From Polyangiales bacterium (GTDB taxonomy: Bacteria > Myxococcota_A > Polyangia > Polyangiales > Polyangiaceae), in the NCBI GenBank assembly GCA_038210445.1, contig JBBQWQ010000021.1, positions 53,681 to 117,680 of the forward strand: a stretch of DNA of 64,000 bases. The letters are read 5' to 3'. Every line of letters begins with the position of its first letter. The stretch's first letter is position 1. The notes under the pieces were generated by a model that was given only the letters and a program-made list of their open reading frames with translations, ran no database searches and had not been told where the DNA came from. The position numbers and the translations under genes were made by a program. Positions 1,383 to 61,408 of the stretch are shown here, in pieces.

Positions 1383-3173
<1,791 letters not shown>

Positions 3174-5236: not shown

Positions 5237-5574
5237 GACGAGGCTCCGGAGAGCGGGGTCATCGCCGGCACCCGGGGCGCAGACACCTCGAGCTCGCGGT
5301 ATACGCGGCGAGCGCGGTGACGGTACCAGAGCACCTGGGTGAGCAGCACCGCGCGCAGGGCGATGCCGAGCACCAGCCCAGCGACGAACATGTGCTCGTT
5401 CTTCGAGGCGGAATACACCAGCGCGCAAACGCGCCCCAGAAGGTTGAGGCCGGGGAAGAACAGGCTCACATCCTCCGATCGCTTCAGCCGATAGAGGCGC
5501 GCGATCTGCGGAAGGTAGGAGCCTTCGATGGCCAGGAGACCGATGCTGCCGAAGAGCCAGTTGATATCCGTCAT
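5233..5574 (-). CDS. small 3-TM PQ-loop (SemiSWEET/MtN3-like or LAB_N-like) membrane protein
   Basis: 113 aa with three hydrophobic segments and a PQ motif after TM1 (GSYLPQIARLYRLKRS). ATG 5574 has a purine-rich GAGAAGAAG upstream. The stop overlaps the GTG start of cysH. Confidence 0.55.
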   Translation of the reverse strand: MTDINWLFGSIGLLAIEGSYLPQIARLYRLKRSEDVSLFFPGLNLLGRVCALVYSASKNEHMFVAGLVLGIALRAVLLTQVLWYRHRARRVYRELEVSAPRVPAMTPLSGASS

Positions 5575-5626
5575 AACGACTTCTTCTCAGATAGCAGACG
5601 AGTTTCCGTTATGCTAGATATTCGGA

Positions 5627-6544
5627 GTGACCCGATCATCGCCTTCTTCGCCCACCCATCTTCGTGCCCTCGAGGACGAAGCCATCTTCGTATTCCGCGA
5701 GATCTGCGCCGAGCGCGAGCGCCCGGCCCTTCTGTTCTCCGCCGGGAAGGACTCGCTGGTGCTGCTGCGACTGGCGGAGAAAGCGTTCCGTCCGGCGCGC
5801 TTCCCCTTCCCGCTCCTGCACGTAGACACCGGTCACAACTTTCCCGAAGCCATCGCGTTTCGCGATCGCAGGGTAGCCGAGCTGGGAGAGCGCCTGATCG
5901 TCGCGTCGGTAGAAACGTCCATCGCCCAGGGCCGGGTGACCGAAGAGACCGGACCGCGCGCGTCGCGCAATCGCCTGCAGACGGTGACGTTGCTCGACGC
6001 CATCGCCGAGCATGGCATCGACGCAGCGTTCGGCGGCGCCCGACGCGACGAAGAACGCGCCCGGGCCAAGGAGCGGGTCATCAGCTTTCGCGACGAGGCC
6101 GGCCAGTGGGACCCCAAGAACCAGCGGCCCGAGCTGTGGGACCTGTACAACACCGACGTTCGGCGCGGTGAGCACCTGCGGGCCTTCCCCCTCTCCAACT
6201 GGACCGAGCTCGATGTGTGGGAGTACATCCGGCACGAACAGCTGGAAGTGCCCTCCATCTACTTTGCCCACCAGCGCGAGGTGTTCTCGCGCGACGGCAT
6301 GCTGTACGCCACCTCGGCATTCGTCACCCGCTCGGCGCGTGAGGTGCCGTTCCGCGAGACCGTGCGCTTCCGCACCGTGGGCGATATGAGCTGCACCGGC
6401 GCCGTACGCAGCACCGCGCGAACGCTCGACGCCATCATCGACGAAGTGGTCTCCGCCACCGTCACCGAGCGCGGCGCCACCCGGGCCGACGACAAGTTCA
6501 CCGAGGCTTCGATGGAAGACCGCAAACGCGAGGGATACTTCTGA
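5627..6544 (+). CDS. cysD: sulfate adenylyltransferase subunit 2
   Basis: 305 aa. THLRALEDEAIFVFREI aligns with the CysD N-terminus, and the PAPS_reduct-like core is present (LLFSAGKDSLVLL). Confidence 0.9.
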   Translation: MTRSSPSSPTHLRALEDEAIFVFREICAERERPALLFSAGKDSLVLLRLAEKAFRPARFPFPLLHVDTGHNFPEAIAFRDRRVAELGERLIVASVETSIAQGRVTEETGPRASRNRLQTVTLLDAIAEHGIDAAFGGARRDEERARAKERVISFRDEAGQWDPKNQRPELWDLYNTDVRRGEHLRAFPLSNWTELDVWEYIRHEQLEVPSIYFAHQREVFSRDGMLYATSAFVTRSAREVPFRETVRFRTVGDMSCTGAVRSTARTLDAIIDEVVSATVTERGATRADDKFTEASMEDRKREGYF

Positions 6545-7791
6545 TGACCACGTTGCTACGAGTGTGCACCGCAGGAAGCGTCGACGACGGCAAGAGCACG
6601 CTCATCGGTCGACTTTTGTTCGACGCCAAAGCGCTCATGAGCGACCAGCTCACCCAGGTGGAGGAAGCGAGCCGGCGCCGGGGGTTTGCCCGAACCGAGC
6701 TGGCGCTGGTGACCGACGGCCTGCGCGCCGAGCGCGAGCAAGGCATCACCATCGACGTGGCCTGGCGCTACTTCTCGGTGCCCGGGCGCCGCTTCATTCT
6801 GGCCGACACACCAGGACACGTGCAATACACACGCAATATGGTCACCGGCGCTTCTACCGCAGAGGCGGCGCTGTTGCTGGTCGACGCCCGGCAGGGGCTC
6901 ACCGAGCAGTCGCGAAGGCACCTGTACCTCACCACGTTGCTGGGGGTTCGGCACCTGGTGGTGGCCATCAACAAGATGGACCAGGTGGCGTTCTCGTTCG
7001 AGCGCTTCGCGGAGATTCGCGACATCATCGACGCCTACCTGCGCGACCATACGCGCGGCGCCGCCAGCGTGGTGTACGTGCCGGTGTCGGCGCTGCACGG
7101 CGACAATGTGGTTACCCGCTCCGGCCGCACGGCCTACTACCAGGGGCCCACCCTGCTCGAGCACCTCACCCTGCTCGACACCGTGCGCGACGAGGCCCAC
7201 GCGCCGTTTCGCCTCCCGGTGCAGTGGATCGTGCGGCCGCAAACCGACGCCCACCACGACTACCGCGGCATCGCCGGGCGCATCGCCGCCGGTACGGTGC
7301 GGGTGGGCGACGCCATCACGGTGCACCCTTCGGGAAAGACCAGCACCGTGCGCGCGCTCGAGACCAGCGGCGGCCCGGTAGAGGAAGCCCGCCGCGGCGC
7401 CTCGGTGACGGTGCACCTGGAGCACGACGTCGACGTGAGCCGCGGAGACGTGCTCGCGGCAGCGGCCACGCCGCCGCGCATCGGCCAGGATCTGGTGGCC
7501 GACCTGGCGTGGTTTTCGCCAAGGCCGGCGGAAGCGGGCAAGCGGTACCTGCTCAAGCACACCACGCGAACCACCAAGGCCACGCTCGCGTCGGTGGAGC
7601 ACGTCATCGACGTCGCCTCCGGCGCGGCGCTCGCGAAGCGCGACGTGGAGGAGAACGACATCGCGCGCGTGGCCTTCAAGACCGCGGCGCCCCTGGTGTG
7701 GGAGCCCTACGAGACCGACCGCATTCTGGGCAGCGCCCTGTTGGTCGACGAGACGACCCACGAAACCCTGGGCGGGCTGATGCTGCGCTGA
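6544..7791 (+). CDS. cysN: sulfate adenylyltransferase subunit 1 (GTPase), not fused to APS kinase
   Basis: GTPase motifs GSVDDGKST, DTPGH and NKMD. 415 aa with no CysC domain. Its start overlaps the cysD stop (TGATG). Confidence 0.9.
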   Translation: MTTLLRVCTAGSVDDGKSTLIGRLLFDAKALMSDQLTQVEEASRRRGFARTELALVTDGLRAEREQGITIDVAWRYFSVPGRRFILADTPGHVQYTRNMVTGASTAEAALLLVDARQGLTEQSRRHLYLTTLLGVRHLVVAINKMDQVAFSFERFAEIRDIIDAYLRDHTRGAASVVYVPVSALHGDNVVTRSGRTAYYQGPTLLEHLTLLDTVRDEAHAPFRLPVQWIVRPQTDAHHDYRGIAGRIAAGTVRVGDAITVHPSGKTSTVRALETSGGPVEEARRGASVTVHLEHDVDVSRGDVLAAAATPPRIGQDLVADLAWFSPRPAEAGKRYLLKHTTRTTKATLASVEHVIDVASGAALAKRDVEENDIARVAFKTAAPLVWEPYETDRILGSALLVDETTHETLGGLMLR

Positions 7792-7822
7792 ATAGGGAGC
7801 GCGAGGCCACCGTCCAAGGCCC

Positions 7823-9094
7823 ATGACTTTTCTTCCTTCGTCGGTCGCTCGAAACACGGCAATTTGCGGCCTCATCGCTGCGTCGCTGGGCTGCGGCGCG
7901 GGTACCGTGGAGCACGGCGCGGTCGATCTCGCCATGACCAGCGCGTACCGACCGACCCGCGGGCATGGGCATGGGCAGGGGCTCGGGAGCGAGAGCGCGC
8001 TGGCGGTCGGGGAGGCTGCCCCCCGCTATCACCTTCTGGGCGGCGATCTGCACTGCCACGTACTGCCGCCCGACGACGCCACCCACGTGTCGCGCTCGCT
8101 CCACGACACGGTGGCGTTGGCCAAGCGCGAGGGGCTCGACTTCGTGGTCCTCACGCCCCACGTTGCGGCGCGCTTCCAAGAAGACGAGGACGCCCGCCGC
8201 GAGGTGGTGCGCGAACAGCGAGCCCTCAAGGACGCCATCAGCGGCGAGTCCCTGGGCGGCCTCATGGTGGTTCCCGGCTTCGAGTACACCGACCACGAGC
8301 TGGGGCATGCGGGCGTAGCCTTCGCCGATCTGGAGCGGGTTCTGGAGAGTGTTTCCGTGCAAGATGCACGAAAGAGCCCAGGGCTATTTTTCGAGCGCTG
8401 GGTCGAGAAGGGCGGCCTCCTGGTGGTGAACCATCCGCTGGTCACCGCCCTCCCCTCCGGGCCCTCCATCGCCCGCGCCGACCTCTCCTGGCGCCCGCTC
8501 ACCGCCCCGGGTCCGGGGTCGGGCGGGCTCCGCGGCGACATCGACGCCATCGATCGCCTGGCGAGTGGCTTCGAGGTGTACAACCTCACCGCCACCCACC
8601 TTCGCGACCGGTACCTGCAGGGCGACACCGACAAGACGCTGCTCGCCACCCTGCTCCGCCTCGACCAGGAGATTCCCCTCCGCAATCGCCGCATGACCCC
8701 CATCGGCGGCACCGACAGCCATAGCTACCACCTACGGCCCACCACCTACGTGCTGGCCGAGACGCGCAGCATCGAGGGCGTGCGTGCCGCGGTAGCGGCA
8801 GGCCGGACCTGTGTGCGCGCACCGGAAGCGTGCTCGCTCGAAGCCCGGGTGCCGGACCAAAGATTCGCCGGCTGGTCGCCGCTGGGCGCCAACCTGATCA
8901 CCGCCGGCGAGGTCGAGCTGCGAGCCACCGGCGACGACATCGAGCTCTACCGCGACGGCGCGGTGGTGGCGACGCCGGCCTCCGGCGCCACGGTGCGGGT
9001 GCCGGTACCTGCTGGCAAGTGCTCGGTGCTGCGGGCGCGGGTGGGCAGGGGATTTTCCGCCCCCATCTACGCCAACTGCGACATTCGCACCTGA
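7823..9094 (+). CDS. secreted/lipoprotein PHP-domain metal-dependent phosphoesterase
   Basis: Signal peptide with a lipobox (AASLGCGAG). PHP motifs LLGGDLHCHVLPPDD and IGGTDSHSY. Confidence 0.65.
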   Translation: MTFLPSSVARNTAICGLIAASLGCGAGTVEHGAVDLAMTSAYRPTRGHGHGQGLGSESALAVGEAAPRYHLLGGDLHCHVLPPDDATHVSRSLHDTVALAKREGLDFVVLTPHVAARFQEDEDARREVVREQRALKDAISGESLGGLMVVPGFEYTDHELGHAGVAFADLERVLESVSVQDARKSPGLFFERWVEKGGLLVVNHPLVTALPSGPSIARADLSWRPLTAPGPGSGGLRGDIDAIDRLASGFEVYNLTATHLRDRYLQGDTDKTLLATLLRLDQEIPLRNRRMTPIGGTDSHSYHLRPTTYVLAETRSIEGVRAAVAAGRTCVRAPEACSLEARVPDQRFAGWSPLGANLITAGEVELRATGDDIELYRDGAVVATPASGATVRVPVPAGKCSVLRARVGRGFSAPIYANCDIRT

Positions 9095-20541: not shown

Positions 20542-21471
20542 TCAGAAGCGAATGGTCGCGAAGGCCTCGACTTTGCGGGGTCGGCTCGGTGCCAGGAGCA
20601 GCGAAACGATGCCCGAAGCCAGCGTCACCGCCGCGCCAACGACGAACGCGGTGGCGAAGTTGCCGTAGGTGATCGCGCGATCGAGGCGGTCGAGACCGGC
20701 TTGCCTGCACGAGGCTACCCCGCACTCCTCGCGGCGCGCGGTGTCGTTCTCCACCTTCGCCGCCACGCCGAAGGTGATGGCTCCGACGGTGGCGACGCCG
20801 GAGCTGACGAGCAGGCCGATGCCCACGGGAACGAGGATGCTGCGTCGGCCGGAATGCGGCGCAAAACCAGGGGCCTCCGTCGGCGGACGCAGCTCCGGCA
20901 CCCGGACGCGCACCTCGCGCCGCTGCACCTCCACCCGCACGTGCCACGGAGTCGTTCCCGGCGCCTCTGCAGACACCTCGTGGGCACCGGTGTCCACCGG
21001 GAGCCGCATGCCCCAGGCGGCCTTGCCGAGGTCGAGCCCGTCCTGTCGGATCACCATTCCCGACGCCGGGCTGGGTACCTCGATGATCAGGTACGAGAGC
21101 CTGGGCTCAAGCTCGGCGATCTTGCTGGTGGCATGCTCTGCGCGGCGCACTTGGCCCAAGCGTGACGCCAATACCTGCATCTCGTGATAACGCACCCAGG
21201 CGCTGGCAAAGCGTCTCGTCGCCTCATAGCACTCGGCGAGGTTGAAGAGCGTCCCCGGCGCAACATCGAGGCGCGCGCTCTCCGCGAACTTGGGGCAGGC
21301 CTCCGCGGCGCGCCCCTGGTCCATCAGCGCGCGGCCTTCCTGAAAGAGCTGCTCGGCCATGGCCTTGCCGGCGTCCTCGCCGCCAAGGGGTTCGTCGGCC
21401 GACGCACGGCCAGCGAAGAGCATCGAGGTAGCGAGGAAGCACGCGGCGAGATGATGAGAACCGAGGACCAT
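20542..21471 (-). CDS. secreted TPR-like repeat protein with C-terminal TM segment
   Basis: ATG 21471 with a signal peptide (MVLGSHHLAACFLATSMLFAGRASA), helical repeats and a C-terminal hydrophobic segment. It lies 46 bp downstream of the sigma-54 activator on the same strand. Confidence 0.55.
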   Translation of the reverse strand: MVLGSHHLAACFLATSMLFAGRASADEPLGGEDAGKAMAEQLFQEGRALMDQGRAAEACPKFAESARLDVAPGTLFNLAECYEATRRFASAWVRYHEMQVLASRLGQVRRAEHATSKIAELEPRLSYLIIEVPSPASGMVIRQDGLDLGKAAWGMRLPVDTGAHEVSAEAPGTTPWHVRVEVQRREVRVRVPELRPPTEAPGFAPHSGRRSILVPVGIGLLVSSGVATVGAITFGVAAKVENDTARREECGVASCRQAGLDRLDRAITYGNFATAFVVGAAVTLASGIVSLLLAPSRPRKVEAFATIRF

Positions 21472-21517
21472 GGGGTCGGCCCTCAGCCTACCACCAGGCC
21501 TCGCGCTGCGTCGTCGT

Positions 21518-22834
21518 TCAGCGCAGAGGCGGAATACCGTGCTTGGCCTTGAGCCGATGAAAGTAGCGCCGCGCGATGCCGGACGCGCCGGCGGCCCTCG
21601 ACACGTTCCCACCGTGCACCGCGAGGATCTTGAGCAGATACCGGCGGTCGAACTCTTCGCCGAGGAGCGTGCGCGCTTGTACCAGCGGCAGATCGGCGGC
21701 CAGGAGCCGCTCGGCGATCTCGCCGATCTTCGCCTTGGCATCGTCGCGAAAGGTGGCCTCCGGGTCCACCGCATCGCTGCCGGTGGTGGCGAGCTTCACC
21801 ACCGTGCGCTGCAGCTCGCGCACGTTGCCCGGCCACCGGTAGAACTCGAAGCGACGGAGCGTCATCGGCGAAAGTACCGCGTCGCCCACGTCGAGCCCTC
21901 GCCAGAAGAAGTCGGCGAGGAGCTTGAGATCGCCCTCGCGCACCCGCAGCGGAGGCAGCTCCACCCGCGCTCGCGCAAGGATGCCGGCCAGACCCTCGAG
22001 CACGCGTCCACGCTCCACGTCGAGGTCGAGATCGCGTCGCGAGCTGCCGACCAGGCGCACGTCGAAGGTGGGGAGCACCACCCGGTCGGCGCGCTCCACC
22101 GGCCTGCGCTCCAGGAACGCCAACAAGCGCTCCTGCGACTCGCGCGGCAGATCGCCGAGGTCCTTCAGCAGCAGTGTGCCGCCGTCGGCCCGTTCCAGCT
22201 GGCCCGGCGATCCCTTGGTGCCGAAGAGCCGTGCGTCGACGTCGGGCTCGGTGGCGTCGCAAACCACGAAGGGCCCGTCGGGTCGTGGACCTTGCTCGTG
22301 AAGGACCTCCGCCAAGAGCTCCTTACCGGTGCCGGCCTCGCCCTCCACCAGCGCCGGCGCGCGCGAGGCGGCCAGCTGCGCCAGCAACGGATACAGCCGA
22401 CGCATCACCGGGCTGCCGCCGAGGACCCGTCCGAAGCTTCCCTGCTTGCCGAGCCCGCTGCCGTCGGGTGTGTCGCTCACCGCCTCGGCCATGAGCACCG
22501 TGCCACCGATGCGAATCTGCGCGCTCTCGTTCATCTCGGCCTGGAACACCCGAAGCCCCGACACCACGACGCCGTTGGTGGACTCGAGATCGTCGATGCG
22601 AAGCGCGCCGCCCGAGACCGTGGCGGCGAAGTGCCGACGCGATACCGAGCGATCGCGGAGGCGCAGCGCGCAGGCCTCGCTCGTGCCCACCAGGTAGCGC
22701 GTCTCGGGTCCCACCACCAGGAGCGAAGCTCCGGCATCGGGGCCCGAGATCACGTGAAGCTTGAAGGCGACGTCGCCGATGCCCTTGCGTCGCGGCAGCG
22801 ATTCGGTTCCCGGGTCGTGCTTGGGCTCCGCCAT
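21518..22834 (-). CDS. sigma-54-dependent transcriptional activator with N-terminal FHA domain
   Basis: ATG 22834. FHA domain (YLVGTSEACALRLRDRSVSRRHF...STNG). Sigma-54 AAA+ domain (GEAGTGKELLA, GAFTGA-like region, ESELFGH-type GTLLLKDLGDL). C-terminal HTH. Confidence 0.85.
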   Translation of the reverse strand: MAEPKHDPGTESLPRRKGIGDVAFKLHVISGPDAGASLLVVGPETRYLVGTSEACALRLRDRSVSRRHFAATVSGGALRIDDLESTNGVVVSGLRVFQAEMNESAQIRIGGTVLMAEAVSDTPDGSGLGKQGSFGRVLGGSPVMRRLYPLLAQLAASRAPALVEGEAGTGKELLAEVLHEQGPRPDGPFVVCDATEPDVDARLFGTKGSPGQLERADGGTLLLKDLGDLPRESQERLLAFLERRPVERADRVVLPTFDVRLVGSSRRDLDLDVERGRVLEGLAGILARARVELPPLRVREGDLKLLADFFWRGLDVGDAVLSPMTLRRFEFYRWPGNVRELQRTVVKLATTGSDAVDPEATFRDDAKAKIGEIAERLLAADLPLVQARTLLGEEFDRRYLLKILAVHGGNVSRAAGASGIARRYFHRLKAKHGIPPLR

Positions 22835-22921
22835 AACGCTTCGAGGAGAGCGCGACCCGAGGGATATTGCAATGGGACGTGGCGGCGCCGGCGAAGTGAT
22901 AGCCTTTGCTGGCGCGCCGTG

Positions 22922-24379
22922 ATGCCTGCTCAATCCGACGATAGCTCGACCCGCGAAGGCGGCACTCTGCCCGGCGGCGCCGTGGCCGCGGTGGGCGAGC
23001 GCGTGGGTCGCTACCGGCTGTTCCGCCCCATCGCCTCGGGAGGTATGGGCACCGTGTACCTGGGCTGGCTCGAGAGCGACGGCGGCGTGACGCGTCCCAT
23101 CGCCGCCAAGGTGATGCACGCGCAGGGGCCCGCGGCGGAGCGATTGACGCCCATGGCCCTCACCGAGGCGCGCATCGCGTCGCGCATCCGGCACCCCAAC
23201 GTGGTGAGCCTCACCGACGTGGTGACCGGCGTTCGAGGCCCGGTGCTCATCCTCGAGTACGTCGCCGGCGATTCGCTCTCGCACCTGCTCGAGGCGAGCT
23301 CCCATGCGGTCCCCTGGCCGGTGGTGGTGCGCGTCATGGTCGACGTGCTCGAAGGGCTCCACGCGGCGCACGAGGCCACCAACGAGAGCGGGTTGCCACT
23401 CTCGGTAGTGCACCGCGACGTCTCGCCCCACAACGTGCTCGTCGACGAAGCGGGCATAGCGAAGATCGCCGACTTCGGCGTCGCCAAGGCCCTGGAGCGC
23501 GCTTACACGACGGAGTCCGGCGAGGTGCGCGGCAAGCTGGCCTACATGGCGCCGGAGCAGCTCGACGGAAAGGTGGTCGATCGCCGGGCCGACGTGTGGG
23601 GCGCCGGCATGGTGCTCTGGCAGATGCTGGCGGGCACCCGCCCCTTCGCCGGCCTCGACGTGGGCCCAACCATGAAGCGCATCGCGACCGGCGCGGTGGA
23701 CGATCCGACCACCGTACGCGATTGTCCGGAGGCCCTCGCCCGGGTGTGCTTGCGCGCCGTCTCCACCGATCTCGACGCGCGCTACGCGACCGCTCGCCTC
23801 ATGGCCATCGATCTGGAGCGGGCGCTGGCGCCCGCCTCGCACCGGGACGTCGGTCGCTGGGTGAAGCGAACTGCCGGCAGCGAGCTGGCCGCACGGGCCG
23901 CGCTGGTGAAGGAGATGGAGAGCCTGGCGCTTCGCGAGCGGAGCGGCGCGGTGCCACGACCCGCCGTGCAAGCTCCCGCGTCAGCGGCGCCGTGGGCATC
24001 GACTATCAGCGTCGGTACGGGCCGGGCTCGTCCGCTCGCGCTCCGCTGGGCGATGCTGGGCACGGGGCTCCTGGCGATCGCTGCAAGCGTGGCGGTGGCC
24101 GCGCGCGGGATGCGTTCTTACGACCCCGGTACGCCCTCGGCGGCAGCCTCGTCCGCGAGCTCGCCGGCAGGCCCAACGGCGCACGCCGCACCCACGTCGC
24201 AACCGGAGCGCCCCGCGCCGCCGGACCCGGGTTTGCGTGCGGGGGTCGTCCCCTCCACGCGGCCAACGTCGCGTACCTGGCCGCCGCGGGTGACGCCCAC
24301 CGCATCGGCCACTGCGACAGCATCGGCCACGCCGGCTCCCACCGCCGCCGATACCCTCGGACGCAACCAGCGTAACTGA
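22922..24379 (+). CDS. Ser/Thr protein kinase with TM segment and Pro/Ala-rich C-terminal tail
   Basis: Hanks kinase motifs (GGMGTVYLG, AAKV, HRDVSPHNVL, DFG, APE). The N-terminal 480 codons of the listed 969-aa ORF are antisense to the activator gene and are rejected. Confidence 0.85.
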   Translation: MPAQSDDSSTREGGTLPGGAVAAVGERVGRYRLFRPIASGGMGTVYLGWLESDGGVTRPIAAKVMHAQGPAAERLTPMALTEARIASRIRHPNVVSLTDVVTGVRGPVLILEYVAGDSLSHLLEASSHAVPWPVVVRVMVDVLEGLHAAHEATNESGLPLSVVHRDVSPHNVLVDEAGIAKIADFGVAKALERAYTTESGEVRGKLAYMAPEQLDGKVVDRRADVWGAGMVLWQMLAGTRPFAGLDVGPTMKRIATGAVDDPTTVRDCPEALARVCLRAVSTDLDARYATARLMAIDLERALAPASHRDVGRWVKRTAGSELAARAALVKEMESLALRERSGAVPRPAVQAPASAAPWASTISVGTGRARPLALRWAMLGTGLLAIAASVAVAARGMRSYDPGTPSAAASSASSPAGPTAHAAPTSQPERPAPPDPGLRAGVVPSTRPTSRTWPPRVTPTASATATASATPAPTAADTLGRNQRN

Positions 24380-30655: not shown

Positions 30656-30997
30656 TTGGGGACGCAGCCACCTGCGTTTGCGTAGTTGGTGTCACTCATC
30701 TCGTGGCGAGCATTTTCCAGGCGCCCGCCCAGGGTGGCTCGGGCGGGTCGGCCAGTGCATGGTAGAGCGATATTTCTGCATGCTGCCACACGACGGTGAT
30801 CGTGCGGATGCCCGCGAGCTTTCGCAAGGCGACGTTCTGCCCGCAGTCCCGATAGGACCGCTCGGGCTCCGGCTCGCGTTTTTCCGGTGCCGCGCGCCAG
30901 CGCCTGCCAGGAAGTTGGCTCCTTTCGCCCAGCTCCGTACGCTTTGCGCTGCGCAGAATGAGGGCGAATCCTCGGAGTGCGCACCTGGAGTCGACAC

Positions 30998-33004
30998 ATG
31001 GCGGAGAATCTTCCCCTTCTCATCATCCTCATCGTCATCGCGGTGCTCATCGTGTTCGGCACGCTGATCATGGTGGCGAGGTTCTATCGGCAGGTAGACC
31101 AAGGCCGCGCCCTCATCGTGAACACGATGCGCTCGGAGCCGGTCGTCACCTTCACCGGTGCGGTGGTTTACCCCATCGTCAACCGCGCCGAGCTCATGGA
31201 CATGTCGGTGAAGATGGTCGAGATCGACCGCCGCGGAAAGGAGGGGCTCATCTGCAAAGACAATATCCGCGCAGACATCAACGTGAGCTTCTTCATCCGC
31301 GTGAACAAGACCCAGGAAGACGTCCTCAAGGTGGCGCAATCGGTGGGCTGCGCCCGCGCCTCCGACGCGGTAGCCCTGCGCGAGCTCTTCAGCGCCAAGT
31401 TCTCCGAAGCCCTGAAGACCGTGGGCAAGCACTTCAACTTCGAAGACCTTTACAAGATGCGCGAAGAGTTCAAAGACCAGATCATCAAGGTCATCGGTCG
31501 CGACCTCAACGGCTTCATCCTCGACGACGCCGCCATCGACTTTCTCGAGCAGACGCCGCTCTCGTCGCTCGACCCCAACAACATCATGGACGCCGACGGT
31601 ATCCGCAAGATCACCGATCTCACGGTGATTCAGAACGTGCAGACCAACGAGCTCCGGCAAAAGGAGCGCATGGAGATCGGCAGCCAGAACCTCACCGCCG
31701 ACGAAGCGGTGTTCCGCTTCGAGCAGCGCCGGGCCGAGGCCGAGGCCAAGAAGGAACGCGAGATCGCCGTCGCCAAGACGCGCGAGCAGAACGAGGCCCA
31801 GCGCATCGCCTCCGACGAGCACAAGAAGACGCTCCTGGTGCAGCACAAAAACGACGAGGAATCGAGCATCGCCGACCAGGCGCGGGCACGCGGCATCGCG
31901 GTGGCCGAGAAGAACCGCGAGCGGGAAATCGCCGTAGAAACCGAGCGCGTCGAGAAGGCGCGGCAGCTCGAGGTCATCAACCGCGAGCGCGAAGTCACCC
32001 TCGGTACCATCGCCAAGGAGAAGGAAGTCGAGCTCCAGAAGAAGGAGATCGCCGACGCCATCCGCGCCCGTATCGCCGTCGACAAGACCGTCGCCACCGA
32101 GGAAGAGGCCATCAAGGATCTGCGCGCCAACTCCCAGGCCACCCGCGAGAAGGACGTTATTCGCATCGCCGCCGAGGCCGAGGCCCAGGGCTCGCTCGTC
32201 AAGCAGATCAAGGCCGCCGAGGCCAGCGAAGAGGCCGCCAAGTTCAAGGCCCGGGAGAAGATCGTCACCGCCGACGCCGAGCTCGACACCGCCGACAAGG
32301 TGGCGCGCGCGAAGATTCGCCTGGCCGAGGGCAAGCCGGCCGAGGCCGCCGCCGAGGGCCTGGCCAACGTGAAGGTGCGCGAAGCCGACGCCGTCGCCAC
32401 CGAGAAGCAGGGTCGCGCCGCCGCCAACGTGGTGCGCGAGAAGCTCCTGGCCGAAGCAGCAGGCGACGAGCAAAAGGGCCTCTCTGCAGCCCGGGTGAAG
32501 GAAGCGGAAGCCGCCGCCATCGAGAAGCGCGGCGCCGCCGACGCCTCCGCCACCCGGCAAAAGCTCTTGGCAGAAGCTGCGGGCATCGCCGAGAAGGCCT
32601 CGGCCATGAAGGCCCTCGACGAGGCCGGTCGCGGCCACGAAGAGTTCCGACTCCGGCTCGACAAAGAGAAGGTGGTGGAGCTCGAGTCCATCAGGAACCG
32701 GAAAGACATCGCCACCGCCCAGGCCGAGGTCATGAAAGAAGCCTTCAGCCACGCCAAGATCAACATCGTGGGCGGCGACGGGCAGTTCTTCGATCGCTTC
32801 ATCAAGGCCGTCTCGGTGGGTCAATCCATCGAGGGCGTCATGGACCACAGCGAGACCGTGCGCACGCTCGCGCAAGACGTGCTGGGCAAGGCCTCGGGCG
32901 ATCCCGCCATCGCCGGCCTGCTCTCGCAGTTCATGAGCCGGGCCGACGACGCCCAGAAGGCGCGCCTGCAGCAGCTTCTGAGCGCCGGCACGCCTACCAA
33001 GTAA
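30998..33004 (+). CDS. flotillin-like SPFH/Band-7 family protein (YqiK-like)
   Basis: ATG 30998 with an N-terminal TM segment (LPLLIILIVIAVLIVFGTLIMV), an SPFH domain and a long Ala/Glu/Lys-rich coiled-coil (EA repeats) typical of flotillins. The stop lies 5 nt upstream of the next start. Confidence 0.85.
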   Translation: MAENLPLLIILIVIAVLIVFGTLIMVARFYRQVDQGRALIVNTMRSEPVVTFTGAVVYPIVNRAELMDMSVKMVEIDRRGKEGLICKDNIRADINVSFFIRVNKTQEDVLKVAQSVGCARASDAVALRELFSAKFSEALKTVGKHFNFEDLYKMREEFKDQIIKVIGRDLNGFILDDAAIDFLEQTPLSSLDPNNIMDADGIRKITDLTVIQNVQTNELRQKERMEIGSQNLTADEAVFRFEQRRAEAEAKKEREIAVAKTREQNEAQRIASDEHKKTLLVQHKNDEESSIADQARARGIAVAEKNREREIAVETERVEKARQLEVINREREVTLGTIAKEKEVELQKKEIADAIRARIAVDKTVATEEEAIKDLRANSQATREKDVIRIAAEAEAQGSLVKQIKAAEASEEAAKFKAREKIVTADAELDTADKVARAKIRLAEGKPAEAAAEGLANVKVREADAVATEKQGRAAANVVREKLLAEAAGDEQKGLSAARVKEAEAAAIEKRGAADASATRQKLLAEAAGIAEKASAMKALDEAGRGHEEFRLRLDKEKVVELESIRNRKDIATAQAEVMKEAFSHAKINIVGGDGQFFDRFIKAVSVGQSIEGVMDHSETVRTLAQDVLGKASGDPAIAGLLSQFMSRADDAQKARLQQLLSAGTPTK

Positions 33005-33009
33005 CGTAA

Positions 33010-36000
33010 ATGACGGACCAGCCCAAGGAGACGCTCGAGGGCGGCAACTACGAGATCATTCGTAGGCGCCTTCTGGAGCAAGCGGCGGAGATTGGCACCA
33101 AGGCCGAGGCGCTGAACCAGAAGCGCAAGACGGTGTTCGGGGGCACCGAGCTCGGCCTGGTCGCCAACGAGCGGGCCCGCACCGAGAACAACTGCATTCC
33201 CCGCGACATGGTCAGCGTCGCAGGGCACTTGCTGTTCGGCTTCGAGGTCTTCATGGGCCTCAAGGAAGAGGTGAAGGTCTCCGACGTTCTCACCTTCCAT
33301 CGCTTCGGCAAAACGGCCGAGGGTTACGAGATCGCCGAGGTCCCGCCCGAGGCTCCCGCCCCTGGCGCGACCGGCGAGCGGCCCCTCGCCTTCCTCGCCG
33401 ACGCGACCTTCGTGAAGGAGTTCAAAGACGTCTTTCGCTACATGAAAGATGCCCGGCTCTCGCAGCTGCGGCGCACCGAGACGCGCCTGTTGTGCAGCGT
33501 GCAAGTCGGCGCCAGCGTGAAAGACGTAAAGGTCTTCCGCTGGGCCATCGACGCCAAAGGCGGCGTCTCGTACATGGATGCCCGCGGCGACGAGGACTAC
33601 GCGCCGCCGCGATCGCACGACTTTGCCTGGACCGCGACCGGTCGCGAGAACCAGGTGGCCGGCAAGTTCCCCCATATCTCGGTACTCAACGAGGTATTCG
33701 TCGAGACCCTGGGTGGCGATCTCACCATCAAGGTGGAGAACAACACCAAGGAGGGTCAGGGCATTTACCGCGAGCCGGTCGACGACCCCAACCAGACGCT
33801 CGACGACGCCGACATCGCCTACGCCAAGGTCGGCTCACTCATCCTGCTCAAGATTCGGCCCTTCCGCGAACAGGCCTATCGATACCTCGTGTATGATACA
33901 CGCAACAAGCGAGTCACCCGCATCGATGCCATCGGCCGGGCCTGCCTCGGTCTTCCCGAAGGGCACGGAATCGTGTTCCCGGGCGGCGTGTACCTCGACA
34001 GCGGCGAGCGCAAGGTGTTCGAGGGCGACGTCGCCGACATGGAGTTCGAGCGGGTCATTCCCTCGCCCAATGGCGAAGACGTGGCGTACGTGTTCTACCG
34101 CCACCACGACGGCCAGTACGTCATCATGCCGTACAACCTCATCCGCAAAGAGGCCGACTCGCCCATGCGGTGCAACGGCTACAGCCTCTTTCCCGATGGC
34201 ACGCTCGCCATCTTTCGCGCCTCGGCCGAGGCCACGCGCATTCACCCCATTCAGGTGTGGCGCACGCCCTTTACCACCGCCGAGTTCGCCGCCGGCGCCA
34301 AGACCGACGGCTCCTACCTGGCCAAGGTCGGCAATGCCGACTTGGTGCGCGGCATCAGCGACGCGCTGGCCCTCCGGCGCCTGGCCAGCAAGGAAGACCC
34401 TTCACGCCAGACCTACGAAGACGTGGTGCGCGGCATCGGTCGCCTCATCGACGCCTACTACTGGCTCGGCAACGACGAGGCCGGCAACCTGCTCGCCACG
34501 CTGCAGACGCTGAAGAAGACCTCCGAGCTCATCATCGACGAGTTCGAGAAGCTGGCCGAGATTCGCAAGCGCGCCGCCGAGCAAACCGCCAAATCGGAGG
34601 CCGCCCTCGCGGAGCTCGAGAAGCGCCTGGCGCCAGACGGCCTCGGAAGCATCGACGCATTCCTGGGCGCGCTCACCGATCTCCGGCGCTTTCGCGGCGA
34701 GCTGGTGACGCTGCGCGAGCTTCGCGGGGTGGAGCCCCCACGCATCGACGCGCTAGAAGGCAAGGCGGTGGCGCTCTTCGACGCCGTCAGCGCAGCCTGC
34801 GTGAAGTTCCTTTTGGCGCGCGACGCCTTCGCCGACCTGGTCACGCGCCTCGACGGCAGCATCGTGGCCATCGAGAAGGTGGTAAAAGCCAGCGAGCTGC
34901 TGCCCTTCGAGAAGGATCTCGACACGGTGCAGACCGGCCTCACCCTGCTGGGCGACGTGGTCTCTGCGCTGGCCATCGACGACGTCACCGAGCGCACCAA
35001 GATCCTCGAAGGTGTCAGCGCGGCTTTCGCCCAACTCAATCGCGCGCGCGCCACCTTCCAGGCGCGCAAGAAGGAGCTCTCCTCCAAAGAGGGCAAGGCC
35101 GAGTTCGGTGTACAGTTCAGGCTCTTCGGCCAGGCGGTCGCCGGCGCCCTCGCGGTGTGCGACACCCCCGAGCGCTGCGATCAGGAGCTCTCCAAGCTGC
35201 TCCTCTCGCTCGAGGAGCTCGAGGGAAAGTTCGCCCAGTTCGACGAGTTTGCGCTGGAGCTGGCCGACAAGCGCCAGGAAGTGCAAGACGCTGTCTCTGC
35301 CCGCCGCCAGCTCCTCACCGACGAGCGCCAGAAGCGCGCCGGCAACCTGGCGCAGGCCGCCGACCGCGTACTGGCCGGAGTGGTGCGGCGCGCGCAAACC
35401 TTCGCGACCCAAGACGACCTGAATGCCTACTTCGCCTCCGACCCCAGCATCCAGAAGGTGCAGGAGCTGCAGAAGGAGCTGGGGCGCATGGGCGACACCG
35501 TGCGCGCCGACGAGATCGCCTCGCGGCTCAAATCGGCGCGGCAAGACTCACAGCGGGCGCTCCGCGACAAGACCGATCTCTTCGCCGAAGGTGCCATTCG
35601 CTTCGGCGCGCACCGTTTTAGCGTGAACACCCAGCCCATGGAGCTGACGCTCATTCCCCGCGAGGGGACCATGATGCTGCACCTCACGGGCACGGACTTC
35701 TACGAGACCCTAGACGACGCCGAGCTCGCTGCAGCCAAAGATCTGTGGGAGCAAGCGTTGCCCTCGGAGTCGCCCGCCGTGTACCGTGGCGAGTTCCTGG
35801 CGACGCAGATCTTCGCCGCCGCCGAGACCAAGCGCCAAGGGCTCACCTTCGAGGCGCTCAAGCTCGCCGGCACCAAGACCGACGGCCTCCTCGACGCCGT
35901 GCGCGAATTCGCCCGTGACCGCATCGACGAGGGCTACGAGCGCGGCGTTCACGACTTCGACGCATCGCTGGTTTTGGAGCGACTGCTCTCGCTCCGCGAA

Positions 36001-38571
36001 ACCGTCGGGCTCCTGCGCTTTTCGCCCGACGCCCGGGCCCAGGCCACGCTCCACTGGCTCGCGCTGGCCGAAGCCGAGCAAATAGGCCTTCGGCGCAAGG
36101 CCCGCGCCGCCGTGCGCATCCGCGAGGAGCTGGGCGACAGCGACCATCTCGTGCATCTTACAGGTACCCTGGGCGAGGCCATGGCTGGCCGAACCGCCGG
36201 AAGCGCGCTGGCGATGATCCCGGCCGCCGCCCGCGCCGCCTCTGAATACCTGATTCTGGAGCTTTCGCGCGAGCCCTTGCGCTTCACCACCACCCGCGAA
36301 GCGGTGGAGCTGGTGGGCGCCCTTCGCCGCGAGCTTACCGCCCTTGGGAGCCAGCGCGAGGTAGAGGCCGATCTCGACGCACTCGGCCCCCACGAGGCCC
36401 TGCCCATCGCCCGCGCCTACCTCGAAGGCTTTTTGAAGAAGCCCGAGCGCGCTGCCCTGCGCCCCTTTTTGCTGGAGGCCGCCGTGGCGTGGACCACCGA
36501 GGGCAGGCTCGACCGCGACGAGAGCGCGGCGGTCACGCGGGTTCAGGTCACAGGCCTTCTGGGTCGTCACGCGCGCATCGAGGACCGCAAGCTCGAGGTC
36601 TCGCTCGACGAGCTCTTGCCCCGGGTCGATGCCTTCATCAGCGAGCAACTGCCGCGCTTTCGCGCCTACCGCAAGCTTCGCACCGAGATTCTCGAGCGCG
36701 AGAAGGCCCGACTGCGCATCACCGAGTTCGCGCCGCGGGTGCTCACCTCGTTCGTGCGCAATCGCCTCATCGACGAGGTGTACTTGCCACTCATCGGCGC
36801 CAACCTGGCCAAGCAGATTGGCGACGTCTCCGAGAAGAAGCGCACCGACTTGATGGGCATGCTCCTGCTCATCTCACCGCCCGGGTACGGCAAGACCACG
36901 CTCATGGAGTACGTGGCTTCGAAGCTCGGCCTGGTGTTCATGAAGGTGAACGGCCCGGCCCTGGGCCACGACGTCACCTCGCTCGATCCGGCGGAGGCCA
37001 AGAACGCCACCGCGCGCCAGGAGGTGGAGAAGATCAGCCTCGCCCTGGAGATGGGCAACAACGTGATGCTGTATCTAGACGATATTCAGCACACCAGCGC
37101 CGAGCTCCTGCAAAAGTTCATTTCCCTGTGCGACGCCCAGCGGCGCATCGAGGGCGTGTGGAAGGGCAAGACCCGCACCTACGATCTTCGCGGCAAGAAA
37201 TTCTGCATCGTCATGGCCGGCAATCCGTATACCGAGTCGGGCGAGCGATTCCGCATTCCCGACATGCTGGCCAACCGCGCCGACACCTACAACCTGGGCG
37301 ATATTCTCGGCGGCAAGGAAGACATCTTCGCGCTCTCCTACCTGGAGAACGCCCTCACCTCGAGCTCCATCCTGGCGCCGCTGGCTGGCCGCGAGCCAAA
37401 AGACGTGCACAAGCTCATTCGCCTGGCGCAAGGCGAGGAAGTGCCGCTCACCGATCTCTCGCACGGGTATTCGGGCGCCGAGGTAGAGGACTTTACCGCG
37501 GTGTTCCAGCGGCTCTTCACCGTGCAGACCACCCTGCTCCAGGTGAATCGCGAGTACATCGCCTCGGCCTCGCAAGACGACAGCTACCGCACCGAGCCAC
37601 CCTTCAAGCTACAGGGCAGCTACCGCAACATGAACAAACTGGCCGAGAAAGTGGTGCCGGCCATGAACCAGGAAGAGCTCCTGCGGCTCATCGACGATCA
37701 CTACAAGGGCGAATCGCAGACGCTGACCACCAGCGCCGAGCAGAACGTGCTCAAGCTCGCCGAGATGCGCGGGCGCATCGCCCCCGAGCAGCAGCAGCGC
37801 TGGAAGGCCATCAAGGAAGAGTTCCTGCGCAAGAAGCGCATGGGCGGCAAAGACGACGATCCCGTGGCCCGCGTCACCGGCACCCTGAGCGGCCTCGATT
37901 CGCAGCTCCAGGGCATTGGCGAGACCCTCAAGCGCGGCCTGGGCGACGAAGCGCGCACCCCCGACTGGGGCGGCCTCCTCGACAAGGTGCAGGCTACACT
38001 CTCTCGCATGCAGGCCCCGCGGGTAGACCTTCATCTGGAGAGCGGCGGCGCAGCCGAGCTCACCGCGGTGGTGGCCGAGCATACTGCGCTTCTTTCGCAG
38101 GTCATCACCGCCTTGGCCAAGGGGCCCAGTCAAGTTCCGCAAGCGGGCGGCGGCGGGCACGAAGTGGCGGCGCGCATCGAAGATCTGGCGCGCATCCTCG
38201 AGCGCATGGAGCAAAAGCTCCGGGCCCCATCGGGCAGTAGCCTTTCCTACGAGGTCGCCCTCGACGCCGGCAGCCCCAGCAACTTCTTCCGCGGCTTCGA
38301 GGGCAACGACGTCATCGCCCACGGCGGCCTCTTCGTGGCCACCTACGAAAGGCTGCCGCCCCTGGGCGCCCGCGCCACCGCGCGCCTCGCCTTCCCCGGC
38401 GGCGCCAACTGCGACGTGGAGGGCACCGTGCTCTTCCGTCAGGATCTGGTCGACGACGAAGGCGCCAGCCTGGTGCCCGGCTTCGGACTTCGCATCGAGA
38501 ACGTCACCACCGATGGCGCCGCGCTCATCGCCGTATTCGCCCGCCAGCGCGAGCCCATGGTGCGCGAGTAG
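33010..38571 (+). CDS. giant (1853 aa) multidomain protein: N-terminal globular region, ~700-aa coiled-coil, single MoxR-like AAA+ ATPase module, C-terminal PilZ-like beta-barrel
   Basis: Uninterrupted ORF with high GC3 throughout. Walker A ISPPGYGKTT (about aa 1290, nt 36880-36900), Walker B VMLYLDDIQ, and a MoxR/AAA_5-like segment AGNPYTESGERFRIPDMLANRADTY. The C-terminal PilZ-like pattern is NDVIAHGGLFV...EGTVLFRQ...PGFGLRIENV...ALIAVF. Confidence 0.8.
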   Translation: MTDQPKETLEGGNYEIIRRRLLEQAAEIGTKAEALNQKRKTVFGGTELGLVANERARTENNCIPRDMVSVAGHLLFGFEVFMGLKEEVKVSDVLTFHRFGKTAEGYEIAEVPPEAPAPGATGERPLAFLADATFVKEFKDVFRYMKDARLSQLRRTETRLLCSVQVGASVKDVKVFRWAIDAKGGVSYMDARGDEDYAPPRSHDFAWTATGRENQVAGKFPHISVLNEVFVETLGGDLTIKVENNTKEGQGIYREPVDDPNQTLDDADIAYAKVGSLILLKIRPFREQAYRYLVYDTRNKRVTRIDAIGRACLGLPEGHGIVFPGGVYLDSGERKVFEGDVADMEFERVIPSPNGEDVAYVFYRHHDGQYVIMPYNLIRKEADSPMRCNGYSLFPDGTLAIFRASAEATRIHPIQVWRTPFTTAEFAAGAKTDGSYLAKVGNADLVRGISDALALRRLASKEDPSRQTYEDVVRGIGRLIDAYYWLGNDEAGNLLATLQTLKKTSELIIDEFEKLAEIRKRAAEQTAKSEAALAELEKRLAPDGLGSIDAFLGALTDLRRFRGELVTLRELRGVEPPRIDALEGKAVALFDAVSAACVKFLLARDAFADLVTRLDGSIVAIEKVVKASELLPFEKDLDTVQTGLTLLGDVVSALAIDDVTERTKILEGVSAAFAQLNRARATFQARKKELSSKEGKAEFGVQFRLFGQAVAGALAVCDTPERCDQELSKLLLSLEELEGKFAQFDEFALELADKRQEVQDAVSARRQLLTDERQKRAGNLAQAADRVLAGVVRRAQTFATQDDLNAYFASDPSIQKVQELQKELGRMGDTVRADEIASRLKSARQDSQRALRDKTDLFAEGAIRFGAHRFSVNTQPMELTLIPREGTMMLHLTGTDFYETLDDAELAAAKDLWEQALPSESPAVYRGEFLATQIFAAAETKRQGLTFEALKLAGTKTDGLLDAVREFARDRIDEGYERGVHDFDASLVLERLLSLRETVGLLRFSPDARAQATLHWLALAEAEQIGLRRKARAAVRIREELGDSDHLVHLTGTLGEAMAGRTAGSALAMIPAAARAASEYLILELSREPLRFTTTREAVELVGALRRELTALGSQREVEADLDALGPHEALPIARAYLEGFLKKPERAALRPFLLEAAVAWTTEGRLDRDESAAVTRVQVTGLLGRHARIEDRKLEVSLDELLPRVDAFISEQLPRFRAYRKLRTEILEREKARLRITEFAPRVLTSFVRNRLIDEVYLPLIGANLAKQIGDVSEKKRTDLMGMLLLISPPGYGKTTLMEYVASKLGLVFMKVNGPALGHDVTSLDPAEAKNATARQEVEKISLALEMGNNVMLYLDDIQHTSAELLQKFISLCDAQRRIEGVWKGKTRTYDLRGKKFCIVMAGNPYTESGERFRIPDMLANRADTYNLGDILGGKEDIFALSYLENALTSSSILAPLAGREPKDVHKLIRLAQGEEVPLTDLSHGYSGAEVEDFTAVFQRLFTVQTTLLQVNREYIASASQDDSYRTEPPFKLQGSYRNMNKLAEKVVPAMNQEELLRLIDDHYKGESQTLTTSAEQNVLKLAEMRGRIAPEQQQRWKAIKEEFLRKKRMGGKDDDPVARVTGTLSGLDSQLQGIGETLKRGLGDEARTPDWGGLLDKVQATLSRMQAPRVDLHLESGGAAELTAVVAEHTALLSQVITALAKGPSQVPQAGGGGHEVAARIEDLARILERMEQKLRAPSGSSLSYEVALDAGSPSNFFRGFEGNDVIAHGGLFVATYERLPPLGARATARLAFPGGANCDVEGTVLFRQDLVDDEGASLVPGFGLRIENVTTDGAALIAVFARQREPMVRE

Positions 38572-59590: not shown

Positions 59591-61408
59591 TTAGAATGCC
59601 AAACGACGAGAAACCAGCTCACCACTCTTGATCGTCACCGTGGTCGTCTGGTGAACGTTCTCCGCCGGGTTGTCGAGCGAGAGGACGTGGGTGCCCGGCG
59701 AGAGCGAAGCGCGCACCACCGGGGTATTGCCGATCACCCGCCCCCCCTCCGTGACCCGCGTCCATGGGTAGGTGTCGATGGTGAGAAACCCCGGCTCCCG
59801 GGGCGCGGCGGTAGCGGGCTCCGGCTTGGGCTCTGCAGCCGACGAGGCTGCGGCTGAGGCCGACGGCAAACCGGGCTGCGGACGCCCGCCGGCGACCGGC
59901 TGCGGCCACTGCACCTTGCGCGTCCCGCTGGGGGGCGCGACCAGCTCGCCGCGACGCGGGGCGGCCGACGGGAGATCCTGTGGGCCGGAGGACTGCGGCA
60001 AAGCCGCCAGAGGGGCGGGCGCGGTGCCAGGCGCGGTTGGCGCTTCGGTCGCCACCTTGCCTGGGTCGTTGGCCGGGCGCCGCAGCGCGAAGAACGCCGC
60101 GAGACCACCGAGGGTCAGAAGCAGGAGGAGAAGCGGCACGGGCCAGAGCGCACGGCGGCGGTCGGGGGCCGACGCCACGGTGCCGCTCTGCGGAGGCGCC
60201 TCGTCGACGGTCGTGTTGCGCGTCGAGCCCGAGGGCGGCGGCGTGCTCGTGAGTGTGGGCGCGCTCGAGAGCTGATCGAGATCGGTGAGCATGTCGAGAC
60301 GCGCGATGCTGCGAATGCGGCTGTCGGGGTTGGAGTGCGCCGACTTGAGCTCACTCGAAATGCGCAGGCCGAGGCGCTTTCGCTGCTCCGCGAAGTGCTT
60401 GTTCACGTAGACGCCCACGTCCTCGAGCGAGACCGCCTCCGGCGCTTCGCGCAGGTACGCCTCGAGGGCCTGCTTCATCTCGAGCGCAGAGGCGAAGCGG
60501 TTTTCGGGGAGCTTCTCCAGCGCCTTGGCGAGCAACGCCTCCAGGGCCGGGTCGATGCTCGGAAGTGCGCTCGAAGCCTTGGGCGCCGGAAGGTTCGGGT
60601 TCACCAGCGACAGCAGCGAGCTGAGGTCGTTCTCGGCGGGAAAGAGCCGCGCGCCGGTGATGAGCTCCCACATCACGACCCCCACCGAGAACACGTCGGC
60701 GCGGCGGTCGACGGTGACGGTAGAGGAAACCTGCTCCGGCGCCATGTAGCGCACTTTGCCTTTGAGAATGCCCGCTTCGGTCTGCGAGGTTTGGAGCGCG
60801 CCCTTGGCGATACCGAAGTCGAGCAAGCGAACCCGGCCGTCGTAGCCGACCATGATGTTCTGCGGGCTCACGTCGCGATGCACGATATTGAGCGGCTCAC
60901 CCGAGTAGTCGCGCATCTCGTGGGCGTAGTGAAGCCCGGAGAGCACCTCGACCATGACGCGACACACCTGCGCCGACGAAAGCACATCGCTTTGCTTTCG
61001 CCCCACGCGGTTCAGTGCCTGGAGGGTATGTCCTTCCAGATACTCCATGACCATGAACAGGTTGCCCTGCTCCTCGCCCGCCTCGTACATCTGTACAATA
61101 CACGGATGATTCAGCTGGGTGGTCAGCCGGGCTTCGTCGAAGAACATCGAACGAAATCGCTCTTCGTTCTCCGACCCCACGTCGGCGCGCATGCGCTTGA
61201 TGACCACCACCTTGCCGACGCCGGCCGTACCCTCGGCGATGGCGAGAAAGATGTCGGCCATTCCGCCGCGCCCGAGCCGGGCGAACGCTCGATAGCGGCG
61301 CAGCAGCTCCGGCGCGCGAACGCCATCGTTCCCCTCGCCCTCCGATGGCGCGTCGGGACCGTTTCCCACGACCAACGCGTCTACTTTCCGCACGAGCGAC
61401 CTCCGCAC
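59591..61408 (-). CDS. Ser/Thr protein kinase with TM segment and C-terminal PEGA domain
   Basis: Hanks motifs (GRGGMADIF, VVIKRM, HRDVSPQNIM, DFGIAK, APEQ). TM segment LWPVPLLLLLLTLGGLAAFFAL. C-terminal PEGA-like beta-sandwich (TIDTYPWTRVTEGGRVIGNTPV...SPGTHVLSL). The listed ATG 61408 overlaps the upstream lipoprotein stop by 28 nt; an in-frame GTG at 61390 would cut the overlap to 10 nt. Confidence 0.85.
   Translation of the reverse strand: MRRSLVRKVDALVVGNGPDAPSEGEGNDGVRAPELLRRYRAFARLGRGGMADIFLAIAEGTAGVGKVVVIKRMRADVGSENEERFRSMFFDEARLTTQLNHPCIVQMYEAGEEQGNLFMVMEYLEGHTLQALNRVGRKQSDVLSSAQVCRVMVEVLSGLHYAHEMRDYSGEPLNIVHRDVSPQNIMVGYDGRVRLLDFGIAKGALQTSQTEAGILKGKVRYMAPEQVSSTVTVDRRADVFSVGVVMWELITGARLFPAENDLSSLLSLVNPNLPAPKASSALPSIDPALEALLAKALEKLPENRFASALEMKQALEAYLREAPEAVSLEDVGVYVNKHFAEQRKRLGLRISSELKSAHSNPDSRIRSIARLDMLTDLDQLSSAPTLTSTPPPSGSTRNTTVDEAPPQSGTVASAPDRRRALWPVPLLLLLLTLGGLAAFFALRRPANDPGKVATEAPTAPGTAPAPLAALPQSSGPQDLPSAAPRRGELVAPPSGTRKVQWPQPVAGGRPQPGLPSASAAASSAAEPKPEPATAAPREPGFLTIDTYPWTRVTEGGRVIGNTPVVRASLSPGTHVLSLDNPAENVHQTTTVTIKSGELVSRRLAF

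Follow-up and report, generated by a model that had tools for sequence, protein, structure and literature searches.

A PilZ-superfamily domain at the end of a giant ATPase

We analysed a window of 64,000 nucleotides (nt) from a Polyangiales bacterium (contig JBBQWQ010000021.1 of assembly GCA_038210445.1, positions 53,681 to 117,680; all positions below are those of the window), in which the stop codon of a flotillin-like gene lies 5 nt before the start codon of a giant AAA+ ATPase gene (Table 1). The subject of this work is the C-terminal tail of the ATPase, which had been described from the sequence as a PilZ-like beta-barrel (hereafter, the original prediction). The strings quoted in that description (NDVIAHGGLFV, PGFGLRIENV, ALIAVF, RMEQKLR and LRAPSG) are all present, each where it had been placed, in the translation of the open reading frame (ORF). 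The G+C content at third codon positions (GC3) is 0.91 for nt 38236-38568, which indicates that the region is coding, and 0.87 for the whole ORF. Immediately 3' of the ATPase stop codon, the sequence contained no site resembling a terminator or a promoter.

Scanned alone, the C-terminal segment matched a single NCBIfam model, TIGR02266, which we take to be a myxobacterial paralogous domain related to PilZ. The match covers amino acids (aa) 1747-1841 and profile positions 4-92 of 96 (E = 1.3e-10, 41.3-41.7 bits); although it is statistically significant, its score falls below the curated NCBIfam cut-off (68.7 bits). The domain is kept in all of the at least 120 orthologs listed, which are 55-97% identical overall and come from Labilithrix, Sorangium, Chondromyces and metagenome-assembled genomes (MAGs) of Polyangiaceae. 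When 44 non-redundant ortholog tails were scanned singly, TIGR02266 matched all 44 and PF07238 matched 40 (best E = 1.8e-8), the query being among the four without a match, so that the HMMER search against PF07238 suggested in the original prediction was negative for the query itself and positive for most of its relatives. Among the orthologs listed, 13 full-length proteins carry a precomputed PF07238 match, and JGI has given some of the orthologs the name 'Tfp pilus assembly protein PilZ'. The G, F and G of the PGFG signature are invariant or nearly so, both in the 44 tails and in a set of 121 ortholog sequences.

The 133-aa tail alone found no match in either a word-indexed homolog search or a phmmer search of the PDB; detecting relatives required full-length orthologs and a profile built from their tails. 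Run against every sequence in the PDB, the profile of the 44 tails matched the Xanthomonas PilZ chains 3dsg, 4f48, 7lkq and 3cnr (E = 2e-6 to 1e-5), which are annotated as 'type IV fimbriae assembly protein', and every other PDB chain had E ≥ 0.2. The alignment pairs GGlFvaT of the tails with GGIFVPT of Xanthomonas PilZ, and aGFGvrl with AGIGVQF. AlphaFold2, run on the alignment of ortholog tails, produced a model with a mean predicted local distance difference test score (pLDDT) of 88.7 and a predicted template modelling score (pTM) of 0.80, in which six beta-strands are followed by one alpha-helix. Six strands and a helix are the core architecture of canonical PilZ domains (Galperin and Chou, bioRxiv 10.1101/814665). 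The top four matches of the model in a Foldseek search of the PDB were Xanthomonas PilZ chains (probability 1.00, template modelling (TM) score up to 0.56/0.62), with YcgR-PilZ, MotI and PA4608 at lower ranks. Strand 1 of the model begins at aa 1745 (nt 38242), and the domain therefore begins ~30 nt upstream of position 38270; the span of 38270-38568 given in the original prediction captured the resemblance but clipped strand 1 (see Table 1 for the revised extent).

Taken together, the profile matches and the predicted fold identify the C-terminal ~110 residues as a genuine PilZ-superfamily domain of the TIGR02266 type, a predicted six-stranded beta-barrel with a C-terminal helix. The proposed PilZ-like barrel is thus borne out by the TIGR02266 match, ortholog conservation, the PDB profile matches and the AlphaFold2/Foldseek fold; modelling yielded a PilZ fold and the profile scans yielded PilZ-type matches, not the combination of no significant PilZ score and a different fold that had been named as refuting the proposal. 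A chance resemblance of some other small beta-barrel, for example of a phage hub-like or PUA/RsmE-like kind, is very improbable and effectively refuted by these results.

Table 1. Features of the ATPase, its PilZ-like tail and the partner gene (window positions).
Feature	Position	Strand	Residues	Basis or remark
PilZ-like C-terminal domain	38236..38568	+	1743-1853 of the 1853-aa ORF 33010..38571	
P-G-F-G where strand 6 begins; the conserved core signature 'G-x-G' of PilZ	38476..38487	+		alignments
C-terminal alpha-helix of the domain	38509..38547	+	1834-1846	DSSP on the AlphaFold2 model, model residues 103-115
Columns holding RxxxR in canonical myxobacterial PilZ; here P-S-G-S-S	38227..38241	+	1740-1744	alignment register, column statistics
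Degenerate [D/N]xSxxG loop, N-D-V-I-A-H-G-G	38305..38328	+	1766-1773	2-residue insertion; Ser position is Ala
Giant ATPase ORF: coiled-coil and beta-propeller (DUF3686), DUF7902, AAA+, helical tail, PilZ-like domain	33010..38571	+	1853 aa	
DUF3686: long helix, then beta-propeller-like all-beta domain	33094..34461	+	29-484	PF12458, E = 2e-183
DUF7902	34822..35076	+	605-689	PF25472, E = 9.5e-20
AAA+ module; Walker A GYGKTT, Walker B LYLDD	36772..37449	+	1255-1480	Pfam AAA, AAA_5, AAA_22
Helical C-terminal tail and poorly conserved linker	37807..38235	+	~1600-1742	homologous to the very C-terminus of PilZ-less homologs
Partner gene (YqiK/flotillin-like): N-terminal transmembrane segment, divergent SPFH/band-7, Ala/Glu-rich coiled-coil-like region	30977..33004	+	675 aa	

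Degeneration of the ligand-binding motifs

The register of the two motifs through which PilZ domains bind cyclic di-GMP (c-di-GMP), RxxxR and [D/N]xSxxG, was set by aligning the query and its orthologs with three canonical myxobacterial PilZ repeats from the profile search (P0130, P0148 and P0224), which contain both RxxxR and D-I/V-S-x-G-G and have PF07238 scores of 116-159 bits. The query residues in the RxxxR columns (Table 1) confirm that the domain has no clear RxxxR switch, as had been supposed. The canonical Ser column, Ala in the query, is variable across the family (R, M, A, S and others). Across the 121 ortholog sequences, [DN]xSxxG is present in none (0/121), and RxxxR adjoining strand 1 occurs in only 16. 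Both strings that had been put forward as candidate switches were rejected: RMEQKLR has the spacing RxxxxxR and lies in the preceding helix, which PilZ-less homologs also have, and LRAPSG contains one Arg only. The equivalent of RMEQKLR reads RLE[QH]R, a formal RxxxR, in 57 of the 121 sequences and lies in a helix ~30 residues upstream of the conserved Asp; PilZ-less homologs end in this helix too, and it is therefore no feature of PilZ. The small clade to which the query belongs has the most degenerate of the tails, with the Arg typical of the family lost and a 3-aa insertion before PGFG.

Of the two alternatives in the original prediction, a degenerate c-di-GMP receptor and a PilZ-fold interaction module, the second fits better, since both motifs are missing. 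The reading that we favour with moderate confidence, by analogy with the nearest relatives, is that the tail is a motif-less PilZ domain, added in Polyangia-type myxobacteria, that serves as a ligand-independent protein-protein docking or regulatory module. The PilZ protein of the Xanthomonas type IV pilus lacks the motifs, fails to bind c-di-GMP, and binds the PilB ATPase and FimX (bioRxiv 10.1101/814665); the titles of PDB entries 7lkm and 7lkq likewise tie Xanthomonas PilZ to FimX and the PilB motor ATPase. As the closest structural relative binds PilB and FimX without c-di-GMP, a docking or regulatory role suggests itself for the tail.

Several observations weigh against this reading. The query C-terminus, taken as 133 aa or 122 aa, had no PF07238 match at E ≤ 10 or E ≤ 1. 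One Arg immediately ahead of strand 1 is shared by 112 of the 121 sequences, the query having Ser instead, and further basic residues are conserved in the family (SNFY-R, GFG-R and R-E-P). One sub-clade (P0096, P0100, P0105, P0106, P0112, P0114, P0115, P0117 and P0118) has kept RGMxRPERV, that is, RxxxR right before strand 1, and also has Ser at the canonical column (DVCSLGG); this could be a c-di-GMP site that still works, or only its relic. To judge from this sub-clade, the tail may have started out as a true c-di-GMP receptor whose motifs then decayed to different degrees, and some members may still bind the ligand. The absence of the motifs predicts, without proving, a lack of c-di-GMP binding. 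Finally, PilZ proteins of the XAC1133 type have an inverted strand 1, a helix in place of strand 2 and a barrel that is incomplete, with five strands (bioRxiv 10.1101/814665), whereas the AlphaFold2 model of the tail keeps six full strands and a long C-terminal helix, which makes the analogy with the PilZ-PilB pair a functional speculation.

Some of the same observations would be expected if the tail were still a receptor for a nucleotide second messenger, c-di-GMP or a related dinucleotide, acting through a non-canonical site or through the upstream Arg-rich helix. The domain descends from a c-di-GMP-binding superfamily, the RGMxRPERV sub-clade retains both RxxxR beside strand 1 and the canonical Ser, RLE[QH]R is widespread among the orthologs, and the Asp and several Arg residues are conserved. 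We nevertheless regard such a receptor as unlikely, because the query lacks every candidate residue (RMEQK in place of RLEQR, Ser in place of the family Arg, Ala at the Ser column), the arginines of the upstream helix, which PilZ-less homologs share, are not specific to PilZ, the PilZ nearest in structure has been described as unable to bind c-di-GMP, and the window ORFs scanned include no c-di-GMP turnover genes.

Distribution, maintenance and genomic context of the tail

Scanning one genome per species with conserved AAA+ patterns, we identified 80 homologous loci, of which only 12 have the PilZ tail. The tailed loci belong to Polyangiaceae, Labilithrix and Sorangium; others come from a MAG bearing the label Nannocystis exedens and from a few unclassified bins of Myxococcota or delta-proteobacteria. 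In Myxococcia, Nannocystales, Kofleriaceae and Gammaproteobacteria the homologs extend no further than the helical element found ahead of the PilZ domain in the query, and actinomycete homologs are without the entire ~190-aa extension. This distribution, with the proteins of other lineages ending earlier, marks the tail as a late acquisition of one lineage, added to a machine of far greater age. In 65 of the 80 loci the gene directly upstream of the ATPase gene is YqiK/flotillin-like, and most of the rest have incomplete upstream sequence. For three tailed copies, L002 (Myxococcales 68-20), L003 (a Labilithrix MAG) and L005 (Sorangium So ce1000), the 4 kilobases upstream contain no flotillin-like gene; these copies may be solo paralogs. 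The notion that the tail is an operon-specific flotillin-binding module is weakened by the existence of tailed copies without an adjacent flotillin gene and of flotillin-linked copies without a tail.

A PilZ domain of the TIGR02266 type was appended, only in Polyangia-type myxobacteria, to the end of a widely conserved flotillin-linked AAA+ ATPase. Having lost both RxxxR and [D/N]xSxxG, it would presumably not sense c-di-GMP. Under the docking or regulatory reading it could instead, by analogy with Xanthomonas PilZ, bring the ATPase to a partner specific to the lineage or influence how the ATPase assembles, and the candidate partners are the ATPase's own ring, the flotillin and a lineage-specific client.

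A search with the tail profile returned 4566 cluster representatives at E ≤ 1e-3, and among the best of these, many are pieces of the same ATPase. Family B, as we call a second, large group, consists of proteins of 250-480 aa in which a ~110-aa N-terminal helical domain and a Pro/Ala/Gln-rich linker are followed by a motif-less PilZ domain that is very similar to the ATPase tail (SNFYKGLSGNDVIEHGGIFVATY...PGFGA.F...NREPLFHDDL) and in which PF07238 matches profile positions ~32-101 only. The family B loci are L081 (8001-9320), L082 (2060-3223) and L083-L085. Three diverged members are each encoded divergently beside ftsE-ftsX (ABC_tran and FtsX genes); in two of these three contexts ftsE-ftsX is followed by an M23 peptidase gene, the third contig ending just past ftsX, and a transpeptidase gene lies near the family B member in two of the three. 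As the motif-less subtype also ends the proteins of family B, it looks like a reusable module. A further-reaching idea, which we consider speculative and rather improbable, is that this subtype is a dedicated ligand-independent ATPase-coupling module of Myxococcota that would link flotillin/AAA+ membrane-microdomain remodelling with the cell-envelope and division machinery, much as PilZ bridges PilB and FimX, or else that it holds a new small-molecule site.

Family B also bears on whether the tail is a decaying relic, that is, a PilZ receptor once fused to the ATPase in an ancestor of Polyangia and now a folded but inert appendage. The degeneracy of the query's clade, with its lost Arg, its insertion before PGFG and a query tail that is one of the four among 44 to miss PF07238, is what such a decay would produce, and the ATPase works without the domain in most lineages. 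Identity per alignment column, however, is 22-23% in the linker (aa 1651-1750) vs. 35-55% in the PilZ-like domain, from which we conclude, on alignment evidence, that the tail is under purifying conservation. Conservation so far above that of the adjacent linker, the presence of the tail in all of the at least 120 orthologs listed with an invariant core (GG-FVAT, PGFG and REP), a confident AlphaFold2 fold with normal codon bias, as in a maintained domain, and the conservation of the same motif-less subtype in a second protein family all argue against an inert relic, to which we give little credence.

The original prediction had also held that, whichever of its alternatives applied, the domain would tie the AAA+/flotillin pair to second-messenger or pilus-type signalling. 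This part did not stand: the domain has no binding motifs, the window ORFs scanned yielded no GGDEF, EAL or PilB/FimX-type domain and no other PilZ domain, most homologs of the AAA+/flotillin pair are without the tail, and some tailed copies have no flotillin gene next to them. Given the absent motifs, the label 'PilZ' should not be taken here to mean c-di-GMP-regulated or pilus-related. This helps to avoid wrong transfer of annotation, as automated pipelines already label some orthologs PilZ. Whatever binds the Polyangia-specific tail would be a candidate client or regulator of an extremely conserved flotillin-associated AAA+ ATPase, and the sub-clade with relic motifs provides a natural series for how a c-di-GMP receptor becomes a ligand-blind adaptor.

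Upstream of the AAA+ module, the ATPase begins with DUF3686. The AlphaFold2 model of aa 1-500 (pLDDT 81) has a helix at 14-43 followed by ~28 strands, and the PDB matches listed by Foldseek for DUF3686 are almost all beta-propeller proteins, with a probability near 1.0 but low TM-scores. The Pfam label of DUF3686 is 'ATPase involved in DNA repair', and the AlphaFold2 model shows no ATPase fold; likewise, the product name 'DNA repair ATPase' given to orthologs has no support from anything found in this analysis. The Pfam AAA+ assignment spans aa 1285-1408, and the AAA+ module is 86-89% identical among orthologs. Its protein sequence is 76-86% identical across Myxococcota, Actinomycetota, Gammaproteobacteria and Acidobacteriota, which is unusually tight for an uncharacterised protein and, as far as such identities can tell, implies either extreme constraint or recent horizontal spread.

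The partner gene has a GC3 of 0.89; the transmembrane segment and the coiled-coil character of its product were judged by eye from the sequence. The window copy had no Pfam match, and its phmmer search of the PDB returned noise only. The names that the sources give to its orthologs (61-99% identical) are YqiK, flotillin family or SPFH, and PF01145 is present in some of them, which together indicate a divergent band-7 domain overlooked by standard scans. For both the partner and the ATPase, the nearest orthologs come from Polyangiaceae metagenome bins. The ORFs flanking the pair had no Pfam match to YqiJ/YuaF, PspA or CesT/Tir, and PADLOC gave trivial P-loop matches only, so that nothing points to a known defence system. 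Elsewhere in the window, positions 1383-9094 hold a sulfate-assimilation-type cluster (nitrite/sulfite reductase, tetrapyrrole methylase, PAPS reductase and an EF-Tu-like GTPase of the CysN type), and two Ser/Thr protein kinase genes lie at 21470-24379 and 59591-61408; the former is overlapped by a long antisense ORF (21518-23971) with an equally high GC3, which is probably a high-GC artefact.

Comparison with known systems

Both degenerate PilZ domains and fusions of PilZ are familiar, and the tail would, on the reading favoured here, add a further documented case of PilZ folds reused as protein-interaction modules. The combination of coiled-coil, beta-propeller, AAA+ and PilZ in one protein is a new architecture; our search of the literature (DUF3686, PF12458, TIGR02266, and PilZ with flotillin and AAA+) found no description of it. 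An ATPase with coiled-coil, beta-propeller and AAA+ parts, encoded beside a transmembrane/band-7/flotillin-type gene, has been described by comparative genomics (PMC11237479). YqiJ/YuaF, PspA and CesT/Tir are found in the extended operons only, and abbreviated operons without them are common (PMC11237479). The host protein matches this ATPase in its long N-terminal helix, its beta-propeller-like DUF3686, its AAA+ module and its place directly downstream of a flotillin-like gene, an identification that is inferred from the published description and not from an accession. That work makes no mention of a PilZ tail.

Comparison with canonical PilZ domains (PF07238: YcgR, MapZ/PA4608, BcsA, Alg44 and MotI) shows that the two ligand-binding motifs of those proteins are both missing in the query. 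With the canonical TIGR02266 members, the three repeats used above, the tail shares SNFY, GG-FVAT, PG-G and a C-terminal R(E/D)x(L/M)xx(D/E), but 2 aa are inserted in its motif loop, and RxxxR and the Ser are lost. By both sequence profile and structure its closest relative is the Xanthomonas-type PilZ (XAC1133/PA2960). The latter, however, is a stand-alone protein of ~117 aa in the pilus pathway, whereas the tail described here is fused to an AAA+ ATPase. Together with the six strands and the long helix of the model, this difference suggests that the tail, despite its closest resemblance to the Xanthomonas-type proteins, is not of their structural subtype.

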